Origin: Kaistia sp.
GTDB taxonomy: Bacteria; Pseudomonadota; Alphaproteobacteria; Rhizobiales; Kaistiaceae
Length of the DNA: 64,000 nucleotides
Assembly (NCBI GenBank): GCA_965229325.1
Contig: OZ245873.1
Location: 914,716 to 978,715, forward strand
Reading direction: 5' to 3'
The notes below the pieces were generated by a model that had not been told where the DNA came from, did no database searches, and was given only the letters and a program-made list of their open reading frames with translations. The position numbers were made by a program, and so were the translations under genes. How positions within the stretch are numbered: the stretch's first letter is position 1; each line of letters begins with the position of its first letter. Positions 9,935 through 38,329 of this stretch are shown here, piece after piece.

Positions 9935-10053
9935 CTATCGGCTCGCGGCGTCGTCATACTGCAATAGTGACCCTTGCAATATCGCATTTTAAGTGTAGCA
10001 ATCATAAGAACATTATGCGGCCATGCCGCGATTTTCGCAAGGGTGACAGGACC

Positions 10054-11076
10054 ATGAAACGTTGGATCGTGCCTGCAGGCGCTGCATCGATTGAGGACCT
10101 GGAGTTGGAGACCGTTCCGATGCCGGAGCCGGGCTCAGGGGAAGTTCAGATCAAGATCCATGCGGTCTCGCTGAACCGCCGGGACGAGCTCTTGGTGCGG
10201 GGCGCCTATGGGCCCACGCCGACGCCTTTCGTGGCGGTGTCAGATGGTGCCGGCGAGATCGCCGGGCTCGGCGCGGACGTGGCCGGTTGGTCGATCGGGG
10301 ATAGGGTCACGCCGCACTATTACCCGAGCTGGAACGATGGGCCGCCAGCGACGAATCAGGGGTGGGGGCTGGGGTCTCCAGGTCAAGACGGCGTCCTGTC
10401 CGAATATGTCGTCCTGCCGGCATCGAGACTGAGCCTTGCCCCTCAGACCCTCTCCTTCGAGGAAGCCGCTTGCCTGCCCTGCGCCGGCCTGACGGCATGG
10501 ACCGCGCTCAACGGCAATCGTCCCTACACGCGCCAGATCGGCCCGGAGGACCGGGTGCTGGTCGTCGGGACGGGAGGTGTCTCGCTGCTCGCCCTGTTGA
10601 TCGCAAAGGCAGCCGGTGCGGAAGTTGTTGCGACCACTCGCTCGCCATTGAAGATCGAGAAGGTCAAGCAGCTAGGTGCCTATGGCACGCTGGACATGAA
10701 CGGATCGTCGAACTGGGGCGAGATCGCCGCCGAGCGGTTCGGCGGTTTCACAAGGGTCGTCAACGCCGCAGGCAGCGCTGCGCTCGATCAGTCGATCCTG
10801 GCGCTCGCATCAGGCGGCGAAATCGCATTGATGGGTCTCTTCGAGCATGCCTCCACATCGCCGGACTTCATCCAGCTGATGATGAGGGGCGGCGCGATCC
10901 GTGGCATCTCCGTTGGAAGCGCGATGGCATTCCAGGATCTGGTTGCCTTCGTCGATAAGCACCGCATTCAGCCGCCGATCGCCGAAACCTTCGCATTCGA
11001 TGACGCGCGTGCCGCGTATCGATCGGCGGCTGGCAGCGATCACATCGGCAAGGTTGTGATCCGCGTCGCGTCGTAA
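10054..11076 (+). CDS. NAD(P)-dependent Zn-binding (MDR) oxidoreductase
   Basis: PEPGSGEVQIKIHAVSLN, SDGAGEI, EEAACLPCAGLTAW, GTGGVS Rossmann motif, GKVVI end; divergent from Rrf2. Confidence 0.9.
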   Translation: MKRWIVPAGAASIEDLELETVPMPEPGSGEVQIKIHAVSLNRRDELLVRGAYGPTPTPFVAVSDGAGEIAGLGADVAGWSIGDRVTPHYYPSWNDGPPATNQGWGLGSPGQDGVLSEYVVLPASRLSLAPQTLSFEEAACLPCAGLTAWTALNGNRPYTRQIGPEDRVLVVGTGGVSLLALLIAKAAGAEVVATTRSPLKIEKVKQLGAYGTLDMNGSSNWGEIAAERFGGFTRVVNAAGSAALDQSILALASGGEIALMGLFEHASTSPDFIQLMMRGGAIRGISVGSAMAFQDLVAFVDKHRIQPPIAETFAFDDARAAYRSAAGSDHIGKVVIRVAS

Positions 11077-32326: not shown

Positions 32327-32865
32327 TGTGGGCACGTATTGACGCCGGTCGCGTCGTCGAGCTGACCGATCTCGATCCCGCCGGCCGCTACCATCCGGAC
32401 TGGATCTGGCATCCCTGCGCATCGGATGTCGAGCCTGGCTGGATCTATGACGGCGCGAGTTTCGCGCCTCCGCCGCCGGCCCCGCCGCTCACCGGCGATG
32501 CGCTGGCCGCGCTGAAGGCTGCCTTGCGTGCCGGCATCGACGCCGAGGCCGAGCTCCAGCGTCTCCGCTACATCACGGGCGGCGCCGGCCAGGCGATGAC
32601 CTATGCCCGCAAGACGGAAGAGGCGAAGGCGGCCAGCGTCGATCTGGCGCCGACTGCCGAGGCCTATCCGCTGCTCGCCGCCTCCGTCGGCATCGACGGC
32701 GCCGACATCGCCGAGGTCGCGGCCGTGGTGCTGGCGATGGATGCGCAGTGGTCGATCATCGGCGCGGCGATCGAGGCGGCGCGGCTCGCGGCGAAGAAAG
32801 CAGTCTCCGATGCTGGCGATGAAGCCTCGGCCCGCGCTGCGGCCGTCGTCACCTGGCCGGCCTGA
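32326..32865 (+). CDS. Tail fibre assembly / chaperone-like protein
   Basis: MWARIDAGRVVE, V..GW.YDG..F.PP, QAMTYARKTEEA pattern. Confidence 0.65.
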   Translation: MWARIDAGRVVELTDLDPAGRYHPDWIWHPCASDVEPGWIYDGASFAPPPPAPPLTGDALAALKAALRAGIDAEAELQRLRYITGGAGQAMTYARKTEEAKAASVDLAPTAEAYPLLAASVGIDGADIAEVAAVVLAMDAQWSIIGAAIEAARLAAKKAVSDAGDEASARAAAVVTWPA

Positions 32866-33269
32866 TGATGCCCGTCCTCGTCGACATCGATGTCTGGCGC
32901 GGCAACAGCCTGCCGCCGATCGCCTGGGACTGGCCTGACGGCTATGCCGCGACGGTCGCCTGCCAGATGACGGTCTGGGTTGCCGGCGAGTTGCTGTTCG
33001 TCGTCGAAGGCGGTGGCGGCCTCGTCATCGACGCCGGCAGGCGGCGTTTCCTCTGGGATCGCACGATCGAGCAAAGCCGGGCGATCCCATTCGGCCGCAT
33101 CGCGCGATACGAGATCGAGGATCGCAACGGCAGCGAGACCACGATCTTCTACGGCGGGATCAACGGGCTCGGCGGCCTCAACCTCGACGCCGATGCGCCG
33201 GAGGCGACCGGACAGCTCGACTTCTCCAATCCCTACAATTCCGGCCTCGAACTTGACGGGTGGATCTGA
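32865..33269 (+). CDS. Tail-associated hypothetical protein
   Basis: Coupled ORF with DIDVWRGNS beta-rich pattern typical of fibre adaptor proteins. Confidence 0.55.
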   Translation: MMPVLVDIDVWRGNSLPPIAWDWPDGYAATVACQMTVWVAGELLFVVEGGGGLVIDAGRRRFLWDRTIEQSRAIPFGRIARYEIEDRNGSETTIFYGGINGLGGLNLDADAPEATGQLDFSNPYNSGLELDGWI

Positions 33270-33270
33270 C

Positions 33271-34023
33271 ATGCCTCTTTCGATCACGACGACATTGATC
33301 CGCGACGGCGCAAACAATCTAGTCGCTCGCCAGACCGGCGACGTGTCGGGTACCGGCGCGGGCCCGAAGCTCCCGCTGATGCTGCTCGCCACGGCCGATG
33401 GCCTCAATGTGGTGGACCTCCAGGAGTTGCTGACCGATATCGCCGACGCGGTGGCGTCTGGCGCATCGGTGCTGCCGACCGGCGCTGCCACGGATGCCGC
33501 GCTCGCTTCGATCCTCGCCAAGCTCTCGGCCGATCCCGCCACACAGACGACCCTCGCGGCCGTGCTGGCGAAGCTCAATGCCGGCCTGGCGCTCACGGCC
33601 GGCGCGGCTGTCATCGGCAAGATCATCCAGCAGGTCGGCGGCAGCGACGTTTCGGCTAGCAATCCGGTCCCGGTCGGCGGCGCGCAGATCGCCACCGCCA
33701 CCGCCACGATCGCCTCGGGCACCAGCCTCTCGTCCGCCACCGATCTCGGCACCGGCCGGCTGGTCGGCATCATCATCCCCGCCGCATGGACGACGGCGGC
33801 GATCACCTTCCAAGGCTCAGCCGACGGCGTGACCTATTTCGACCTCTACGATGACGCGATCGAACGCACCATCGCTTCCGGCAGCGTCGTCGCCTCGCGC
33901 TTCATCGCTCTCCCGATCGCCGACTGGTTGATGGTGCGGGCTGTGAAGATCCGATCGGGCAGCGCCGCATCGCCGGTCAACCAGCCGGCCGATCGCATCG
34001 TCACGCTCGTCACGGCGCGCTGA
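33271..34023 (+). CDS. Tail-associated structural protein (coiled segment + beta domain)
   Basis: Start MPLSITT; repeated LASILAKL/LAAVLAKL helices; ATIASGTSLS..IPAAWTTAAITFQGS.DG domain. Confidence 0.6.
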   Translation: MPLSITTTLIRDGANNLVARQTGDVSGTGAGPKLPLMLLATADGLNVVDLQELLTDIADAVASGASVLPTGAATDAALASILAKLSADPATQTTLAAVLAKLNAGLALTAGAAVIGKIIQQVGGSDVSASNPVPVGGAQIATATATIASGTSLSSATDLGTGRLVGIIIPAAWTTAAITFQGSADGVTYFDLYDDAIERTIASGSVVASRFIALPIADWLMVRAVKIRSGSAASPVNQPADRIVTLVTAR

Positions 34024-34026
34024 ACC

Positions 34027-36303
34027 ATGTCGACGCTCACCGCCCGAAAGCTGGCGTCGCAGCCCAGCTGGCTGCCGCGCGGGGCCATCGAACACGCTGA
34101 TCTCCTTGCCGGGATCTACTATGCCGGCAAGCGCCGGCGCGCGTCGATCGACGCTCATCTTGCGGCCAGCGGCTGGACCTTCGCTCGCGCTAGCGAGGCG
34201 AGCTACACCAGCGCCTCTGGCCTTTTGGCCTTTGCCGCTGCCAATGCATTGCGCCTCAACTGTGATCCTTCGACCAATACTCCTCTCGGGCTTCTGCTCG
34301 AGGGCTCTCGGACGAACCTCGCCTCGTACACCGAGAGCTTCGACAACGCCTATTGGCCCAAGACAGCGGGCGCAACCGCCGGCGGCATCACCGTCACGGC
34401 GGATGCTGCCGTAGGTCCGGACGGTGCCACCTCGGCCGACAAGATCATCGAGACGACGGGCAACCTCTCTCACTCGATTTTCAAGAGCACGACGTGGACC
34501 GCGACTCCCTTTGCGATGTCGGTCTACATGAAGGCCGGTGAGCGCAACCGAGGCGGCCCCTACTGGTACGACAACGCCGCCGAGCGCAAGTCGTGGTTCG
34601 ACCTTTCGGCCGGCGCCATCTCACCCTCGGGCCTCGGCACCAAGCGCATCTATGCCGCCGCCAACGGATTCTGGCGCTGCATCGTATCTCGCTCGCCCGG
34701 CGCTGGCTCGGGCCGCTTCGGCGTTGCCATCAGCTCCGCCGACAACCAGGCGGTATATGTGGGCGACGGCACGTCCGGCGCCTATGCCTGGGGCATCCAG
34801 ATCGAACCGGACTTCGAAAGCTCTTACATCCGAGAGCTCGCCGGTGGCTCGGCGACGCGCGCGGCCGACAGCCTGATGCGCACCATCGCACAGCCGACAC
34901 GGCTCGCGATCGTGTTCAAAGTGCGGACGCCTGTCGGCGTGCCGAGCGCAGGCAACCAGGTCATCTGGTCGATCGGCGATGCGACCAATGGCATAATGCT
35001 GCGCCGCAGCTCGACGGGTCACGTGTTTCTCAGTGTCTATGCAGGCGGCGCCACCACGGCCAATCTGGATCTCGGCGGCGTCGGCGGTCTCGGCGTGCAC
35101 AAGGTGGCGCTGTCGCATGACGGCACCACCGCCAAGGCCTGCCTCAACGGCGATACGGTCGCCTCGGCGGCCTGTTCGATCCCAACGCTGACCACGATGA
35201 CCGAGCGCCTCGGCTCATCTGCCGCGGGGGAAGGCTGGTTCGGACACCTGCAGAGTTTCACCCGCTTTGCAGCCCTGACCGACGACGCGATGCTCGCCTA
35301 TACGGCGCCGCCCCAGTACATCAACGCTCTGATCGGCATTGACAGCCTCAGCGACCCAGCCAGCACCGGGCTTGGCCGGCCGATCCGCGACATCATGTGG
35401 GGGCGCATCGGCAAGGCGTCGGCCGGCTGGATCCCGCTCATCTTCCCATCCAACGCTCGCGTCGACAGCCTCAACTATTCTGGCGTGTCCAACATCGACC
35501 GCAACACCGCCTTTCCAGGCGATGATCGGACCCTCGACTTCCAAGGACAGCGCTGGCTTAACCCCAATTCGGGCACAGCCATTGCGACCTTCACGCCGCG
35601 CGAGCCCTATGACCAGCTCGACATGATCTATGTGTCCAACCCCGGCGACGGCAGCTTCCGCTTCCAGGCGACCGGCAACGGCACCACGACGGTCGATGCC
35701 AATGCCGCCATCGCCGCGCGCTCCCTGCGTGTCGAGTGCTTCGCAGCGCCCAATGCCGCCGTGCGGTGGGACCAGTTCGTGACGGGCGTCCCTAACACGA
35801 TCGTCGGCGTCAATTTCTCCCGCGCCGGCGCCGGAGGCTTCACATACAACCCGTTCGGCAACGGTGGCTGGAAGGTGCAGTGGCTCGCCGAGATCGACGA
35901 CGCCGCGATGCGCACCATAATCGGCGCGATCAAACCGACGCACTTCCTGTTTAACGGCGGCATGAACGACCGCGTCGACCGCACGGCTGTGCAGTTCGAC
36001 GCCGATTGCCGCAAGGTGCTCGCCAACGTCTTGGCGGCCGCGCCGCGCTGCAAGATCGTCATCTTGCAATCACTTGATCCAGGTCCGGCTGACACCAGCT
36101 ATTTCCAGAGCTACGTGCCGGTCAAACAGCAGATCGCGATCGACTTCCGCTGCCAGTACCTTGACATGCGGACGATCAATGCCAACACGGCCAACTACAC
36201 CCTCGCCAACGCGGCAGGCTACATGCAGGACGGCGTTCATCCGGCGCCCGCATTCAACAGCGGCATCGGGGCGCCCTGGGTCTGCGACAACGTCGCATGG
36301 TAA
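34027..36303 (+). CDS. Tailspike / receptor-binding protein with C-terminal SGNH hydrolase
   Basis: N-terminal GLLLEGSRTNL fibre motif; C-terminal SGNH blocks IGIDS, GNGGW, NGGMND, DGVHP. Confidence 0.8.
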   Translation: MSTLTARKLASQPSWLPRGAIEHADLLAGIYYAGKRRRASIDAHLAASGWTFARASEASYTSASGLLAFAAANALRLNCDPSTNTPLGLLLEGSRTNLASYTESFDNAYWPKTAGATAGGITVTADAAVGPDGATSADKIIETTGNLSHSIFKSTTWTATPFAMSVYMKAGERNRGGPYWYDNAAERKSWFDLSAGAISPSGLGTKRIYAAANGFWRCIVSRSPGAGSGRFGVAISSADNQAVYVGDGTSGAYAWGIQIEPDFESSYIRELAGGSATRAADSLMRTIAQPTRLAIVFKVRTPVGVPSAGNQVIWSIGDATNGIMLRRSSTGHVFLSVYAGGATTANLDLGGVGGLGVHKVALSHDGTTAKACLNGDTVASAACSIPTLTTMTERLGSSAAGEGWFGHLQSFTRFAALTDDAMLAYTAPPQYINALIGIDSLSDPASTGLGRPIRDIMWGRIGKASAGWIPLIFPSNARVDSLNYSGVSNIDRNTAFPGDDRTLDFQGQRWLNPNSGTAIATFTPREPYDQLDMIYVSNPGDGSFRFQATGNGTTTVDANAAIAARSLRVECFAAPNAAVRWDQFVTGVPNTIVGVNFSRAGAGGFTYNPFGNGGWKVQWLAEIDDAAMRTIIGAIKPTHFLFNGGMNDRVDRTAVQFDADCRKVLANVLAAAPRCKIVILQSLDPGPADTSYFQSYVPVKQQIAIDFRCQYLDMRTINANTANYTLANAAGYMQDGVHPAPAFNSGIGAPWVCDNVAW

Positions 36304-37232
36304 TCGCCTGATTGTGTGGCTGATGTCGGCGCGAGACGGGTGACGGGTTGGTAACCAAGCGCCGCCGCCATTGTCCTAGCGAGCTTTCGCGCTCCATCCG
36401 GAGTCGGGTGAATCGTGTCAGCGTAGAATTCCACCGACCAATTGTCAGACGTTGTTGCGAGGTGAACCGTGGCACCTTCGCGCTCAAGGTCATCAAGAGC
36501 TGGGGCCGCGCGATAGTTGCCAGCGATAAAGTCGTCGCGGTGAGAATAAAAAACAACGTCGACCGGTTTTCCGAACCGTGTTGCAACTTCCCTGAACATG
36601 TCGACGTAGGAGGCACGCGGCACGCGGTACTGATCTTTCAAGACCAGCTTGCGCTTGTAGATCCTGCGTATGATAGCTTTCTCAATCACATAGACCAACG
36701 CCGATCGAGGGCGTGATCGAGGATGGGTTAGGTCGGATCGCCATGATGCCGGCGCTCCGAAATCTTCTCTGTTCACAACAAGGACGAGACGCCCAGCTGC
36801 GGCAAGCACGTCCGGGTTGTCAAGAAGGTACTGAAGTTCGTTCTGGAACGCCCAGCTCGGCGTCGAAACTGGCCAGACCATCGTCCCTGTAGCGAATTCG
36901 AGCTGGGGACCAAGCCGTTCAAAGGCGCGATAATTGGTGCCGCCGTAGACTACGCTGTCACCCACCAGGACGATATCGTTACTGCCAGGCTCGAACGGGC
37001 GCCAAGTTCCCATGCTCCGCTCGTTGAACTCCCAAGCGGTGCGGCCAGCGAAAACGCCGATCTGTTGAGGCTTCGGAATATAACCGATGCGTGCATTGGC
37101 GTCGAAAATCGGAAAGTTGATGACGCCGAGCAGACGCAGCGCGAGTTCGGCTGCGGCCACCATCGCGACTGTGCATAGGATAACGATCGCTGCTGTAAGC
37201 ACGTAGGCCCCCTGAAACGTGTTCAACCGCAA
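36237..37232 (-). CDS. Membrane-anchored SGNH/GDSL hydrolase (moron)
   Basis: N-terminal TM helix; VLVGDSVVYG (block I), DTIHPTPDG (block V); visibly more AT-rich; antisense to late operon; TTG start. Confidence 0.8.
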   Translation of the reverse strand: MRLNTFQGAYVLTAAIVILCTVAMVAAAELALRLLGVINFPIFDANARIGYIPKPQQIGVFAGRTAWEFNERSMGTWRPFEPGSNDIVLVGDSVVYGGTNYRAFERLGPQLEFATGTMVWPVSTPSWAFQNELQYLLDNPDVLAAAGRLVLVVNREDFGAPASWRSDLTHPRSRPRSALVYVIEKAIIRRIYKRKLVLKDQYRVPRASYVDMFREVATRFGKPVDVVFYSHRDDFIAGNYRAAPALDDLEREGATVHLATTSDNWSVEFYADTIHPTPDGARKLARTMAAALGYQPVTRLAPTSATQSGDYHATLSQTQGAPMPLLNAGAG

Positions 37233-37563
37233 ACCTACAATTCAGGACGCGCAAATTGCAATCGGCGATTCTCACAAATGAGGCACTAGGTTGTAAGGGG
37301 TACGAATTATCGGATCGATGCACAATTTTGGTGATATTGCCTCTCTGCGGGTTCAACCGACCGTTCAGAGTAGCGCCTTCAGCAGAAATGGTTGCGCCGC
37401 AACAAAGTCCGCCAACCGGCGCGAGAACGATGAGCTGACGCAGGGCTTTTTAATCTGATGCGCTGCACAACCGACGATCGGCCTTTGCCCCGCGGTCCGA
37501 CGCGCGGCCGAGTCTCGAGGTCACCCGTTGCCGATCTCTGCAACTGAACGCTGGGGGAGCAGA

Positions 37564-37695
37564 TCATAGCCCTCCGACCACCCGCCAAAGCGCGACGAGC
37601 GGCGGCACGAACTGCGCCGCAATGATGATCGCAGACAGGATCAATAGCCCGACGGCGAGCAGCCGCTCGGATCGGTTCGGCGATGGATCGCCCAT
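37564..37695 (-). CDS. Possible 43-aa single-TM protein
   Basis: MGDPSPNRSERLLAVGLLILSAIIIAAQFVPPLVALWRVVGGL; weak RBS. Confidence 0.35.
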   Translation of the reverse strand: MGDPSPNRSERLLAVGLLILSAIIIAAQFVPPLVALWRVVGGL

Positions 37696-37819
37696 CCGGG
37701 CAGAGTAGACCATCGGAGCAAGAGCGCCCGCCATTTCGGCGGGGCAGATCATGTGCCTTCTCGCGCGACCGGCGTTTCTAGACAGCCTTTTCTGACATTT
37801 CATCCCCCGGAGACACGAC

Positions 37820-38329
37820 ATGACCGAACCTTCTTGGCTCGCGGTTGCGCGCCGCTATCTCGGCGTCGCCGAGATCAAGGGCCCGCACCACAATCCGACG
37901 ATCCTCAAGATGCTCGACCGCGCCGATGGCAAGGTCGACGGCAAGCCGCTGCAGGGCATCCGCGACGACGAGGTGCCCTGGTGCGCCTCGTTCACCTCGG
38001 CCGTCCTGGAGGAGGTCGGCGTCGTCTCGGCGCGGTCGGCTTGGGCGCGCTCCTATCTCAACTGGGGCAAGGCGCTCAAGCAGGCAGTGCCCGGCGCCAT
38101 CGTCGTGCTCGATCGCGGCCAGGGGCGCGGCCATGTCTTCTTCGCGATCGGCCGTGACGCGCGCGGCAACATCGTCGGCATCGGCGGCAATCAGAAGGAC
38201 GCTGTGACGATCGCCTCCTTCGCGCCTTCGCGCGTGATCGGCATCCGCTGGCCGTCGAACCTCGCCATTCCCGCCGGCGGCCTGCCGCTCGTCTCGAGCA
38301 CCGGCAAGGTCTCGACCAACGAGGCGTGA
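37820..38329 (+). CDS. TIGR02594-family (NlpC/P60-like) putative endolysin
   Basis: PSWLAVARRYLGVAEIKG, DDEVPWCASF (Cys), GHVFF (His), GIGGNQKDAV. Confidence 0.85.
   Translation: MTEPSWLAVARRYLGVAEIKGPHHNPTILKMLDRADGKVDGKPLQGIRDDEVPWCASFTSAVLEEVGVVSARSAWARSYLNWGKALKQAVPGAIVVLDRGQGRGHVFFAIGRDARGNIVGIGGNQKDAVTIASFAPSRVIGIRWPSNLAIPAGGLPLVSSTGKVSTNEA

Follow-up and report, generated by a model that had tools for sequence, protein, structure and literature searches.

The prophage in the window, the 64,000-nucleotide stretch of DNA analysed here, carries on its minus strand a gene for an SGNH protein with a predicted membrane anchor, which we call the moron and which most plausibly modifies polysaccharide acetylation for lysogenic conversion (probability about 0.65). 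The moron occupies an accessory slot between a fibre gene, whose product itself ends in an SGNH module, and the lysis genes. In the related prophage L071, an AT3 O-acetyltransferase fills the identical slot and an AT3-SGNH fusion is encoded nearby, after the lysis genes; the context thus gives good support to an acetyl-modifying role in lysogenic conversion. The moron is also of deviant composition, and the slot is differently filled in related phages, so that the gene has the placement and composition of a moron.

The moron gene and its protein

A minus-strand frame is present at 36237..37232, with 331 aa counted from its first TTG, and the GDS and DTIH motifs, the transmembrane anchor, and the overlap with the 3′ end of an SGNH-ended fibre gene that an earlier note described are all found. 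The likely true start is the GTG at 37202, which lies 6 nt downstream of a GGGGG Shine-Dalgarno sequence, gives a protein of 321 aa, and agrees with the genome's own gene call (P0001); close homologs begin MLTA or MVTA. Residue numbers given here follow the 331-aa version. The moron is a genuine gene and not a chance open reading frame, as seen from its homologs (E 1e-168 to 1e-26), its AlphaFold2 model (pLDDT 89), and a dN/dS of 0.13 in comparison with L001, a related prophage whose copy is 75% identical; this dN/dS reflects strong purifying selection. The gene has a GC content of 0.58 and a GC3 of 0.63, compared with a GC3 of 0.82–0.89 in the flanking late genes and a window mean GC of 0.67; it had been called AT-rich, which holds relative to its neighbors only. 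The family has a patchy distribution, with members in only 3 of 401 genomes from the order and in none of four further species of the genus; together with the deviant GC3, this marks the moron as foreign and separately acquired.

Table 1. Coordinates of the moron, the fibre gene, and neighboring features in the window
Feature	Position	Strand	Description
Two genes always ahead of the fibre gene	32865..34023	+	134 aa and about 253 aa
Virion fibre gene (putative)	34027..36303	+	758 aa; SGNH module at C-terminus
Convergent 3′-end overlap of moron and fibre genes	36237..36303		67 nt
Moron gene	36237..37202	-	N-terminal anchor, conserved juxtamembrane β-hairpin region, SGNH domain, disordered C-terminal tail
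Region 5′ of the moron	37203..37390	-	GC 0.56; blocks conserved with related prophage L001
49-aa single-pass membrane ORF	37564..37713	-	L001, L002, and L066 have a 79% identical ORF in the same place
Endolysin-like gene (CHAP / TIGR02594)	37820..38329	+	Starts the lysis block; other border of the slot

The overlap between the two convergent genes codes for the disordered tail of the moron (pLDDT <50, residues 314–331), which is missing from the rest of the family, and the moron and fibre genes of L001 do not overlap; the 67-nt overlap is probably a by-product of insertion. Upstream of the moron, the blocks common with L001 are TTGCAA-18 nt-TAGGTT, an AATCG-C-CGATT palindrome, and the GGGGG Shine-Dalgarno sequence. 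The first of these (TTGCAA, 18 nt, TAGGTT) is a candidate promoter read by eye, which the consensus scan did not call; consensus scans returned no sigma-70-type site 5′ of the moron and no clear terminator 3′ of it. A weak hairpin followed by a T-run (37403–37391) separates the upstream region from the small upstream ORF. No meaningful repeats flank the slot.

The moron protein has a single hydrophobic N-terminal segment (Kyte-Doolittle mean 2.4 over 19 aa), which the AlphaFold2 model folds into a helix at residues 6–35, followed by an α/β/α SGNH fold. Most members of the family have basic residues ahead of the helix. In an alignment of 23 homologs, G91-D92-S93 (block I, with the nucleophilic serine), N154 (the block III asparagine), and both D272 and H275 of the block V DxxH motif (D272-T-I-H275) are invariant; N154 sits in an LNSxD motif that appears to replace the GxND motif. 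S126, in the region of the block II loop, is likewise invariant across the homologs. The loop itself, which follows strand 2, reads WPISAGSW in most members and STPSW or SAPSW in the clade of the window, and as a consequence of this glycine-to-proline exchange the oxyanion hole of the moron may not be canonical.

Comparison of the model with known structures by Foldseek gives a probability of 1.0 against many SGNH esterases, a generic SGNH result with modest TM-scores. The top matches are carbohydrate acetylesterases, namely RGAE (1deo), CE2 enzymes (4xvh and 2wao), and a sialate esterase (7pzg), and OafB, OatA, and PatB are absent from the top 50. Against Pfam, the moron scores below threshold throughout: its best match is PF19040, the AT3-fused SGNH domain, at 15.2 bits against a cut-off of 27, and ALGX is matched at E 0.14. 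PF13472 is matched at E ≤ 0.1 by 10 of 23 family members. No AT3 membrane domain is part of the moron, which has 321 aa and one helix. In one family representative, P0146, a cytoplasmic GT4 glycosyltransferase, a helix, and a moron-type SGNH domain are joined in a single protein.

The fibre, the slot, and the moron family

The fibre gene closes the series of baseplate and fibre genes, which suggests that its product is a virion protein. Residues 90–280 match a gene transfer agent (GTA) head-spike-fibre domain (NCBIfam NF048003, 5e-30) and are followed by LamG-like domains, and the N-terminal part resembles Pseudomonas phage tail fibres. The C-terminal module (approximately residues 430–758, nt 35314–36303) has an SGNH esterase fold with an inserted β-sandwich, as in Ape1; Pfam PF13472 matches residues 600–742 (E 6.7e-7), and the catalytic motifs GIDS440L, GGMN647D, and D735..H738 are invariant in 12 homologs. 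By Foldseek, the module is closest to the peptidoglycan O-acetylesterase Ape1 (8gkd and 4k3u, TM 0.65–0.68 over about 345 columns), and the fibre is plausibly an O-acetylesterase. The SGNH end of what had been called a tailspike is thus confirmed, and "tailspike" is a loose name for a protein with NF048003, LamG-like, and tail-fibre-like parts that may sit on the head or on the tail.

The two genes that always precede the fibre gene, for which NCBIfam gave no matches, make up a three-gene module with it, of which orphan copies occur on chromosomes as well. The orphan loci carry fibre homologs with 77–80% identical C-terminal modules and no moron. Five chromosomal fibre copies lack a moron, as does one other phage, L070, which has a convergent DNA polymerase gene behind its fibre gene instead; these rule out a strict form of the co-inheritance of fibre and moron on which the proposal of the earlier note depended. 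The same note suggested that both SGNH domains may act on one O-acetyl group. The two are unrelated in sequence, with no BLASTP match and only 20 columns around block V aligned by hhalign, and we therefore reject them as paralogs; nothing points to a common O-acetyl group. Neither the moron nor the fibre C-terminus has a tblastn match in 50,697 GenBank phage records.

The window and the three related prophage contigs L001, L002, and L066 contain no AT3 gene, and an AT3 HMM built here found no AT3 remnant in the slot when searched against the six-frame ORFs of the window (≥30 aa). In L001, L002, and L066 and also in L060 and L063, the family gene converges on large fibre or tail genes, and phage L062 pairs its family member with an AT3 gene. 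At least four captures of the family by phages can be counted, along with one by a GTA cluster of the RcGTA type (L004); a tblastn search with the GTA proteins of L004 found no other family locus that is a GTA cluster. In other phages, the gene adjoins integrase or tail genes with no lysis genes beside it, and phage copies lie beside receptor-binding genes in the company of AT3 or FkbM sugar-modifying genes.

The family as a whole comprises at least 274 clusters (50% identity clusters, E ≤ 1e-30), with 1,845 representatives in all, and no family model in Pfam/NCBIfam-type profile searches names the group. Its cellular members lie among GT4 and GT2 glycosyltransferases, Wzy, Wza-Wzb-Wzc, Bac_transf, and sugar-nucleotide enzymes; the 117 nearest neighbors at 33 genome loci include 13 GT4, 5 GDP-mannose dehydratase, 4 GT2, and 3 AT3 genes. 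Members stand directly beside co-oriented AT3-only genes, in varying gene order, at L008, L031, and L033 and in phage L062, and at L024 an AT3-only gene lies about 1 kb away. A Caulobacter copy (L011) has no polysaccharide neighbors, nor does the paralog on the host chromosome, which lies between catalase and methionine genes (ArsR-methyltransferase, metF). The host genome further contains one MBOAT gene, a homolog of RcGTA g15, and eight AT3 genes, four of them AT3-only and one of these (C1:2484189-2485178) beside a Wzz co-polymerase gene; an acetylated polysaccharide is therefore likely to be present.

Proposed role and alternative explanations

In the mechanism that we propose, the moron would be transcribed from its own candidate promoter, against the late operon, and its N-terminal helix would tether it to the inner membrane with the catalytic domain facing the periplasm, a topology favored by the basic residues ahead of the helix in most family members and by the P0146 fusion with its cytoplasmic GT4 part. 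There it would act on the O-acetyl groups of a Wzy-type surface polysaccharide (EPS, capsule, or O-antigen), either lipid-linked or in transit. The altered surface would change what phages see, and also what is seen by the host's own GTA-type fibre with its O-acetylesterase receptor-binding modules. The polysaccharide-cluster relatives, the AT3 gene in the slot of L071, and the pairing in L062 make a link between an esterase fibre and an acetyl-modifying moron plausible. Of the lysogenic role put forward in the earlier note, the modification of surface acetylation is thus upheld by context, and the shared acetyl target and strict co-inheritance are not.

As to the direction of the reaction, the moron may work alone as an O-acetyl esterase and so reduce acetylation or abolish it. 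With no AT3 or MBOAT donor in the prophage, a retained block III asparagine, and a likeness to acetylesterases, we think a stand-alone esterase the most likely form of the enzyme, although this assignment is tentative and falls somewhat short of even odds; a place in an operon among biosynthesis genes is usually commoner for enzymes that add decorations than for those that remove them, which counts against it. The opposite direction would follow if the moron supplied the periplasmic part of an OafA-type O-acetyltransferase divided between two proteins, drawing acetyl from an AT3-only membrane protein of the host and passing it to the polysaccharide. The lysogen would then gain O-acetyl, as in classical seroconversion, and the esterase fibre of the phage could still deal with acetylated hosts. 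The co-oriented AT3-only neighbors described above, which occur in separate clades, fit a two-part acetyltransferase better than an esterase. The AT3 and AT3-SGNH genes in and near the slot of L071, the membrane anchor and conserved juxtamembrane region, which would suit docking to a membrane partner, and the four AT3-only genes of the host also speak for it. A review of AT3 proteins leaves open whether a separate SGNH partner serves those that lack one (PMC9558356). However, some 80% of the family's loci lack an AT3 gene within 10 kb, and AT3 genes are common in polysaccharide clusters, so that the two may be neighbors by chance. AT3 fusions are absent from the 150 best family representatives. 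The weak PF19040 match and the hhalign alignment to the AT3-fused SGNH domains of the host (block I to block V, E 0.004) count toward the two-part transferase, but the probability of the latter is only 8%, and structurally solved transferases are outside the top Foldseek matches. No adjacent co-oriented AT3-only gene is present in the window or in L001, L002, and L066, and with AT3 in 0 of 4 prophages of its clade the moron would be a mobile gene dependent on a compatible partner in each host. On balance, we regard the two-part transferase as fairly unlikely.

An action on peptidoglycan O-acetylation or in lysis, for example the de-O-acetylation of MurNAc for the endolysin, is highly improbable. 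The moron does adjoin the endolysin gene, here and in L001, the fibre module is structurally nearest to the peptidoglycan esterase Ape1, and the host has its MBOAT gene; but the moron is of foreign composition and on the strand opposite to the lysis genes, copies in other phages are beside integrase or tail genes, and the cellular relatives are found in Wzy-type polysaccharide clusters and not in patA-patB-ape clusters. An endolysin of the CHAP/TIGR02594 type should, moreover, not be blocked by O-acetylation. It is also doubtful that the moron acts on another ester (succinyl, pyruvyl-linked, lipid A, or phospholipid), serves as a nutritional esterase, or is passenger DNA without effect on phage-host recognition. 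SGNH enzymes are chemically promiscuous, the group bears no family name, and the host paralog and the Caulobacter copy lack a polysaccharide context, yet the moron is under strong purifying selection, polysaccharide-cluster contexts dominate, and phages have repeatedly recruited the family beside receptor-binding genes, together with AT3 or FkbM genes.

Returning to surface acetylation, there is a further reading to which we give only a small chance: a periplasmic, AT3-independent moron esterase would erase the acetylated epitope needed by esterase-bearing fibres, including that of the prophage itself and that of the 80%-identical chromosomal GTA-type module of the host. Such an activity would amount to receptor-erasing superinfection exclusion and would also deprive the lysogen of gene uptake through GTAs, and the insertion of a family member in the RcGTA-type cluster of L004 would be the GTA's version of the same receptor erasure.

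By rewriting the acetylation of surface polysaccharides, prophage genes determine whether a given phage, and perhaps a given gene transfer agent, can attach. The moron's family is large and unnamed; its members are stand-alone SGNH proteins with a membrane anchor, they occur in polysaccharide clusters, and phages have captured them repeatedly. Should the moron prove to be an esterase, it would represent an enzymatic kind of conversion as yet undescribed; should it instead supply the SGNH partner that AT3-only acyltransferases lack, it would bear on the open AT3 question (PMC9558356). Under either reading, the family is a tractable target for assays.

Comparison with known systems

To our knowledge, all characterized prophage genes that alter the acetylation of surface polysaccharides encode AT3-type acetyltransferases or Gtr glycosylation systems. 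Conversion by phage epsilon15 reportedly removes O-acetylation by blocking, inhibiting, or repressing the host acetylase, with no esterase involved; the epsilon15 lysogen ends with less surface O-acetyl, as would a lysogen carrying the moron if the latter is an esterase.

Like the moron, the AT3-SGNH O-antigen O-acetyltransferases OafA, OafB, and GtrC of prophage BTP1 and the AT3-only Oac of Shigella phage Sf6 are accessory, partly prophage-borne, and near receptor-binding genes, and genes of these AT3 and AT3-SGNH types are what L071 carries in and near the moron's slot. The moron shares with OafA and OafB a Ser-His-Asp triad in an SGNH domain that is putatively tethered to the membrane, and it too would alter O-acetylation at the periplasmic face. 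It differs from them in having neither an AT3 domain nor an AT3 gene, in being anchored by a single helix, and in scoring only 15 bits against the PF19040 cut-off of 27; in addition, OafA and OafB are without the block III asparagine (PMC7448272), which the moron retains. AlgX/AlgJ with AlgI, PatB with PatA, and WssI show that a stand-alone periplasmic SGNH acetyltransferase can act on a polysaccharide downstream of a separate membrane protein that delivers the acyl group, an arrangement that may also hold for the five AT3-adjacent loci of the family. The partner in these systems is, however, an MBOAT protein that is always encoded adjacently, whereas the moron has no adjacent MBOAT or AT3 gene, and proteins of the AlgX/AlgJ, PatB, and WssI type are not among its structural matches.

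The fibre, and not the moron, has its counterpart in gp63.1 of Escherichia coli phage G7C, a virion protein whose SGNH esterase lies at the C-terminus and is presumed to deacetylate the receptor polysaccharide, and in the SGNH tail fibres of Klebsiella prophages (PMC13123978). Unlike these, it has the architecture of Ape1, with the β-sandwich inside the SGNH fold, and a GTA head-spike-fibre N-terminal part. The NF048003 domain is common to the fibre and the RcGTA head-spike fibre rcc01080, whose receptor is the capsule (PMC10218006); an esterase module like that of the fibre is unmentioned for rcc01080 in the RcGTA papers considered here. In the host and in related bacteria, the three-gene fibre module is also encoded at an orphan locus on the chromosome, a situation known from the accessory loci of RcGTA, and the host locus is a candidate GTA locus. 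Set against these systems, and read from its sequence and genomic neighborhood, the moron probably changes the acetylation of host surface sugars as a variant of known phage serotype conversion.

The moron gene and its family

The minus-strand reading frame claimed by the earlier note, the prophage-borne moron, is a real gene on the evidence of its homologs and of the genome's own gene call (P0001), which starts at the same point as the closest homologs in the alignment. A single N-terminal hydrophobic helix provides the membrane anchor proposed previously, and the GDS and DxxH motifs noticed at the same time are unchanging: G91-D92-S93, N154, D157, D272, and H275 (331-aa numbering) are invariant in an alignment of 23 homologs. 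The description of the gene as AT-rich holds relative to its surroundings, with a GC3 of 0.63 versus 0.82–0.89 in every flanking phage gene, although the overall GC content is still 0.58. As the low GC3 is accompanied by a core dN/dS of 0.13 versus the 75%-identical copy in the related prophage contig L001, the moron is a foreign gene that is being retained. The sequence TTGCAA-18-TAGGTT, picked by eye and only a candidate motif, is conserved upstream. A small membrane ORF also lies upstream; its counterparts in the related prophages L001, L002, and L066 share 79% identity with it, and in L001 an additional 82-aa membrane ORF sits between this ORF and the moron.

Coordinates of the moron, the fibre, and related genes (window positions unless a locus or the host chromosome, G000:C1, is named)
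Feature	Position	Strand	Details
Moron, reading frame	36237..37232	−	
Moron, called gene	GTG start 37202	−	321 aa; GGGGG Shine-Dalgarno ahead
Moron helix	model residues 6–35		single, N-terminal, hydrophobic; Kyte-Doolittle 2.4 over 19 residues
Moron β-hairpin region	about residues 40–76		strongly conserved; structure model
Moron SGNH core	about residues 87–291		structure model
Moron C-terminal tail	about 35 residues		disordered; structure model
Upstream membrane ORF	37564–37713	−	49 aa, single-pass, conserved
Fibre	34027..36303	+	758 aa; last gene of late structural block
Fibre GTA head-spike-fibre domain	residues 90–280		NCBIfam, 5e-30
Fibre LamG-like domains			
Fibre SGNH module	C-terminal		
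Host orphan module	G000:C1 about 3553485–3556900 (L078 7486–10903)		at 3.55 Mb
Host chromosomal family member	G000:C1:71967–72821 (L074 9923–10846)		37% identical
Host AT3-only gene	G000:C1:2269218–2270240 (L083 5994–7292)		
GTA-cluster family member	L004 8001–8861 (= L020 about 9971–10846)		Mesorhizobium MAG JBKBRJ010000016.1
AT3 gene and family member	L062 6333–7463 and 7788–8915		IMG/VR contig
AT3 gene	L071 8429–9640	−	prophage
AT3-SGNH fusion	L071 11697–13853	−	after lysis genes

No model for the family exists in Pfam, NCBIfam, or PHROGs, and the best sub-threshold Pfam matches of the moron are PF19040 (E 0.018), ALGX (0.14), and GDSL_2 (0.25). An exhaustive profile search returned 1,845 representatives at E≤1e-3, of which 274 reached E≤1e-30, nearly all of them stand-alone proteins of 260–340 aa matched over their full length. 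One metagenomic representative (P0146, 695 aa) fuses a GT4 glycosyltransferase, a helix, and the SGNH domain, which fits an N-in, C-out topology and a function connected with polysaccharide but could instead be a gene-calling artefact.

Cellular members reside in Wzy-type polysaccharide clusters, surrounded by glycosyltransferases, Wzy, and hexapeptide transferases (L006 and L009) or in the order Wza-Wzb-Wzc-Bac_transf-[SGNH]-AT3-Wzy (L008). The 117 nearest neighbours at 33 genome loci, which come from Alpha-, Beta-, and Gammaproteobacteria plus a single Acidobacteriaceae genome, include 13 GT4 glycosyltransferases, 5 GDP-mannose dehydratases/epimerases, 4 GT2 glycosyltransferases, and 3 each of UDP-glucose dehydrogenases and AT3 membrane acyltransferases. 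The family is sporadic, found in 3/401 genomes from the order to which the host belongs and in none of four other species of the host genus. A second, chromosomal host member, likewise absent from those four species, is flanked by catalase and ArsR-methyltransferase/metF genes, away from any polysaccharide genes.

The fibre and its probable esterase module

The convergent neighbour of the moron, the fibre (the "tailspike" of the earlier note), belongs to a block that also contains Baseplate_J, Mu gp48, and a glycine-rich fibre. Its C-terminal SGNH domain, proposed earlier, is borne out by motifs invariant in 12 homologs (GIDS440L, GGMN647D, and D735..H738), in which an insertion of about 150 residues separates blocks II and III. 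The best structural matches of the fibre model (pLDDT 80) are structures of the peptidoglycan O-acetylesterase Ape1 (8gkd and 4k3u; TM 0.65–0.68 over about 345 columns), an SGNH enzyme whose fold accommodates an inserted carbohydrate-binding module (PMC9487903). Given these catalytic residues and the Ape1-like match, the fibre is very probably an O-acetylesterase-bearing receptor-binding protein, a type already described for phage G7C and Klebsiella prophages (PMC13123978).

The fibre is a mosaic: over the N-terminal 420 residues it shares 50% identity with a host chromosomal copy, whereas its esterase module is 80% identical to that copy and 55–58% identical to the modules of other prophages. 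The module thus tracks the host, as expected of a receptor-specific part, and moves independently of the moron. The mosaic pattern suggests that prophage and resident chromosomal locus have exchanged the receptor module.

Linkage of the moron to the fibre and to phages

As the earlier note had observed, moron and fibre genes overlap at their 3' ends; the shared stretch measures 67 nt. The overlap looks incidental because it encodes only the moron's disordered tail, which is atypical of the family, and because L001 has a 150-nt gap in its place. Relatedness of the two SGNH domains was ruled out: BLASTP gives no match between them, and the profiles align over just 20 columns, around block V.

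Co-variation of fibre and moron, a check suggested by the earlier note, is found in the window and the L001 type, where fibre homologs are accompanied by the moron, but fails in phage L070, whose fibre homolog lacks one, and in orphan chromosomal copies. In these, a three-gene module (134 aa, 253 aa, fibre) lies beside tyrC/hisC/chorismate mutase without a moron and with no other phage genes nearby (L065, L067 of Mesorhizobium sp. BR1-1-16, L068, and L069, all from bacteria related to the host, and the host chromosome). An RcGTA g15 homolog lies at 1.78 Mb in the host, and the orphan module may represent a GTA locus for a head spike or fibre, with a predicted esterase on that fibre. In the related prophage L071, an AT3 gene convergent with an esterase fibre occupies the slot of the moron between fibre and lysis genes, and an AT3-SGNH fusion comes after the lysis genes. 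The linkage of moron and fibre is therefore only partial and loose.

Phage-borne members occupy at least four separate places on the family tree, and a long stem of 1.07 substitutions per site leads to the window clade. L001, L002, and L066 (75% identical) share the window's arrangement, convergent with a homologous fibre and preceded by that small membrane ORF; P0002 (80% identical) probably does too, as the sequence of its tail corresponds to the antisense of the fibre P0025 C terminus. Elsewhere, the member follows an FkbM methyltransferase gene and is overlapped convergently by a 679-aa ORF (L060), adjoins an integrase (L061), or is convergent with a 1,530-aa ORF after the tail-fibre J gene (L063/L064). 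In L062, the gene immediately ahead of the member encodes an AT3 O-acetyltransferase, and both genes have low GC3; the pair may be a split OafA-like cassette, the fused AT3-SGNH acetyltransferase in two genes. In L004, a 42%-identical member lies within an RcGTA-type head-tail cluster, between tail-completion and major tail genes on the same strand; with a GC3 of 0.61 versus 0.90–0.94 for all GTA genes, it seems to be foreign DNA that entered the gene transfer agent cluster recently.

Direction of the proposed acyl editing

The genomic context supports a reading of the moron as a periplasmic enzyme that would edit the acyl groups decorating a Wzy-type polysaccharide, a conversion gene recruited by phages (probability about 0.65). 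To this extent the earlier interpretation is supported by context; with the SGNH domains unrelated, there is no sign that the two proteins share an O-acetyl target, and the fibre linkage is loose.

Of the two directions, action in the periplasm as a stand-alone esterase is tentatively preferred. Its top structural matches are carbohydrate acetylesterases rather than OafB, OatA, or PatB. Action as the transferase partner of a separate AT3 protein seems less likely, as none of four window-clade prophages carries a donor gene and no AT3 fusion occurs among the 150 best of the 1,845 representatives, observations that favour the esterase. This transferase reading nonetheless draws on the biosynthetic operons in which the family is located, on the equivalence of the moron slot to that held by AT3 in L071, and on the weak PF19040 match and a whole-domain hhalign alignment. 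It draws further on recurrent AT3 neighbours: with an AT3 HMM built for this analysis, AT3 genes were found immediately adjoining family members, in both gene orders, in L008, L031, L033, and phage contig L062, and near but not adjacent in L024, L035, and L045, although no AT3 gene occurs within 10 kb at about 80% of the loci. The transferase reading would also be of interest because a review of AT3 enzymes leaves unsettled whether AT3-only proteins, those without a fused SGNH domain, require a separate SGNH partner (PMC9558356).

Of the eight AT3 genes that the host encodes, four are AT3-only, with one beside a Wzz co-polymerase gene; there is also one MBOAT gene. One AT3-only gene (L083) adjoins a gene with a weak match to a phage tail-sheath C-terminal domain and may encode a further acyltransferase borne by a prophage or tailocin.

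The comparison with OafA/OafB also favours the esterase: the block III Asn, invariant in the moron family, is missing from these transferases (PMC7448272). A surface-polysaccharide conversion gene carried by a prophage next to a receptor-binding protein is of a kind already known; the enzyme family that carries it here is without a name and worth characterising.
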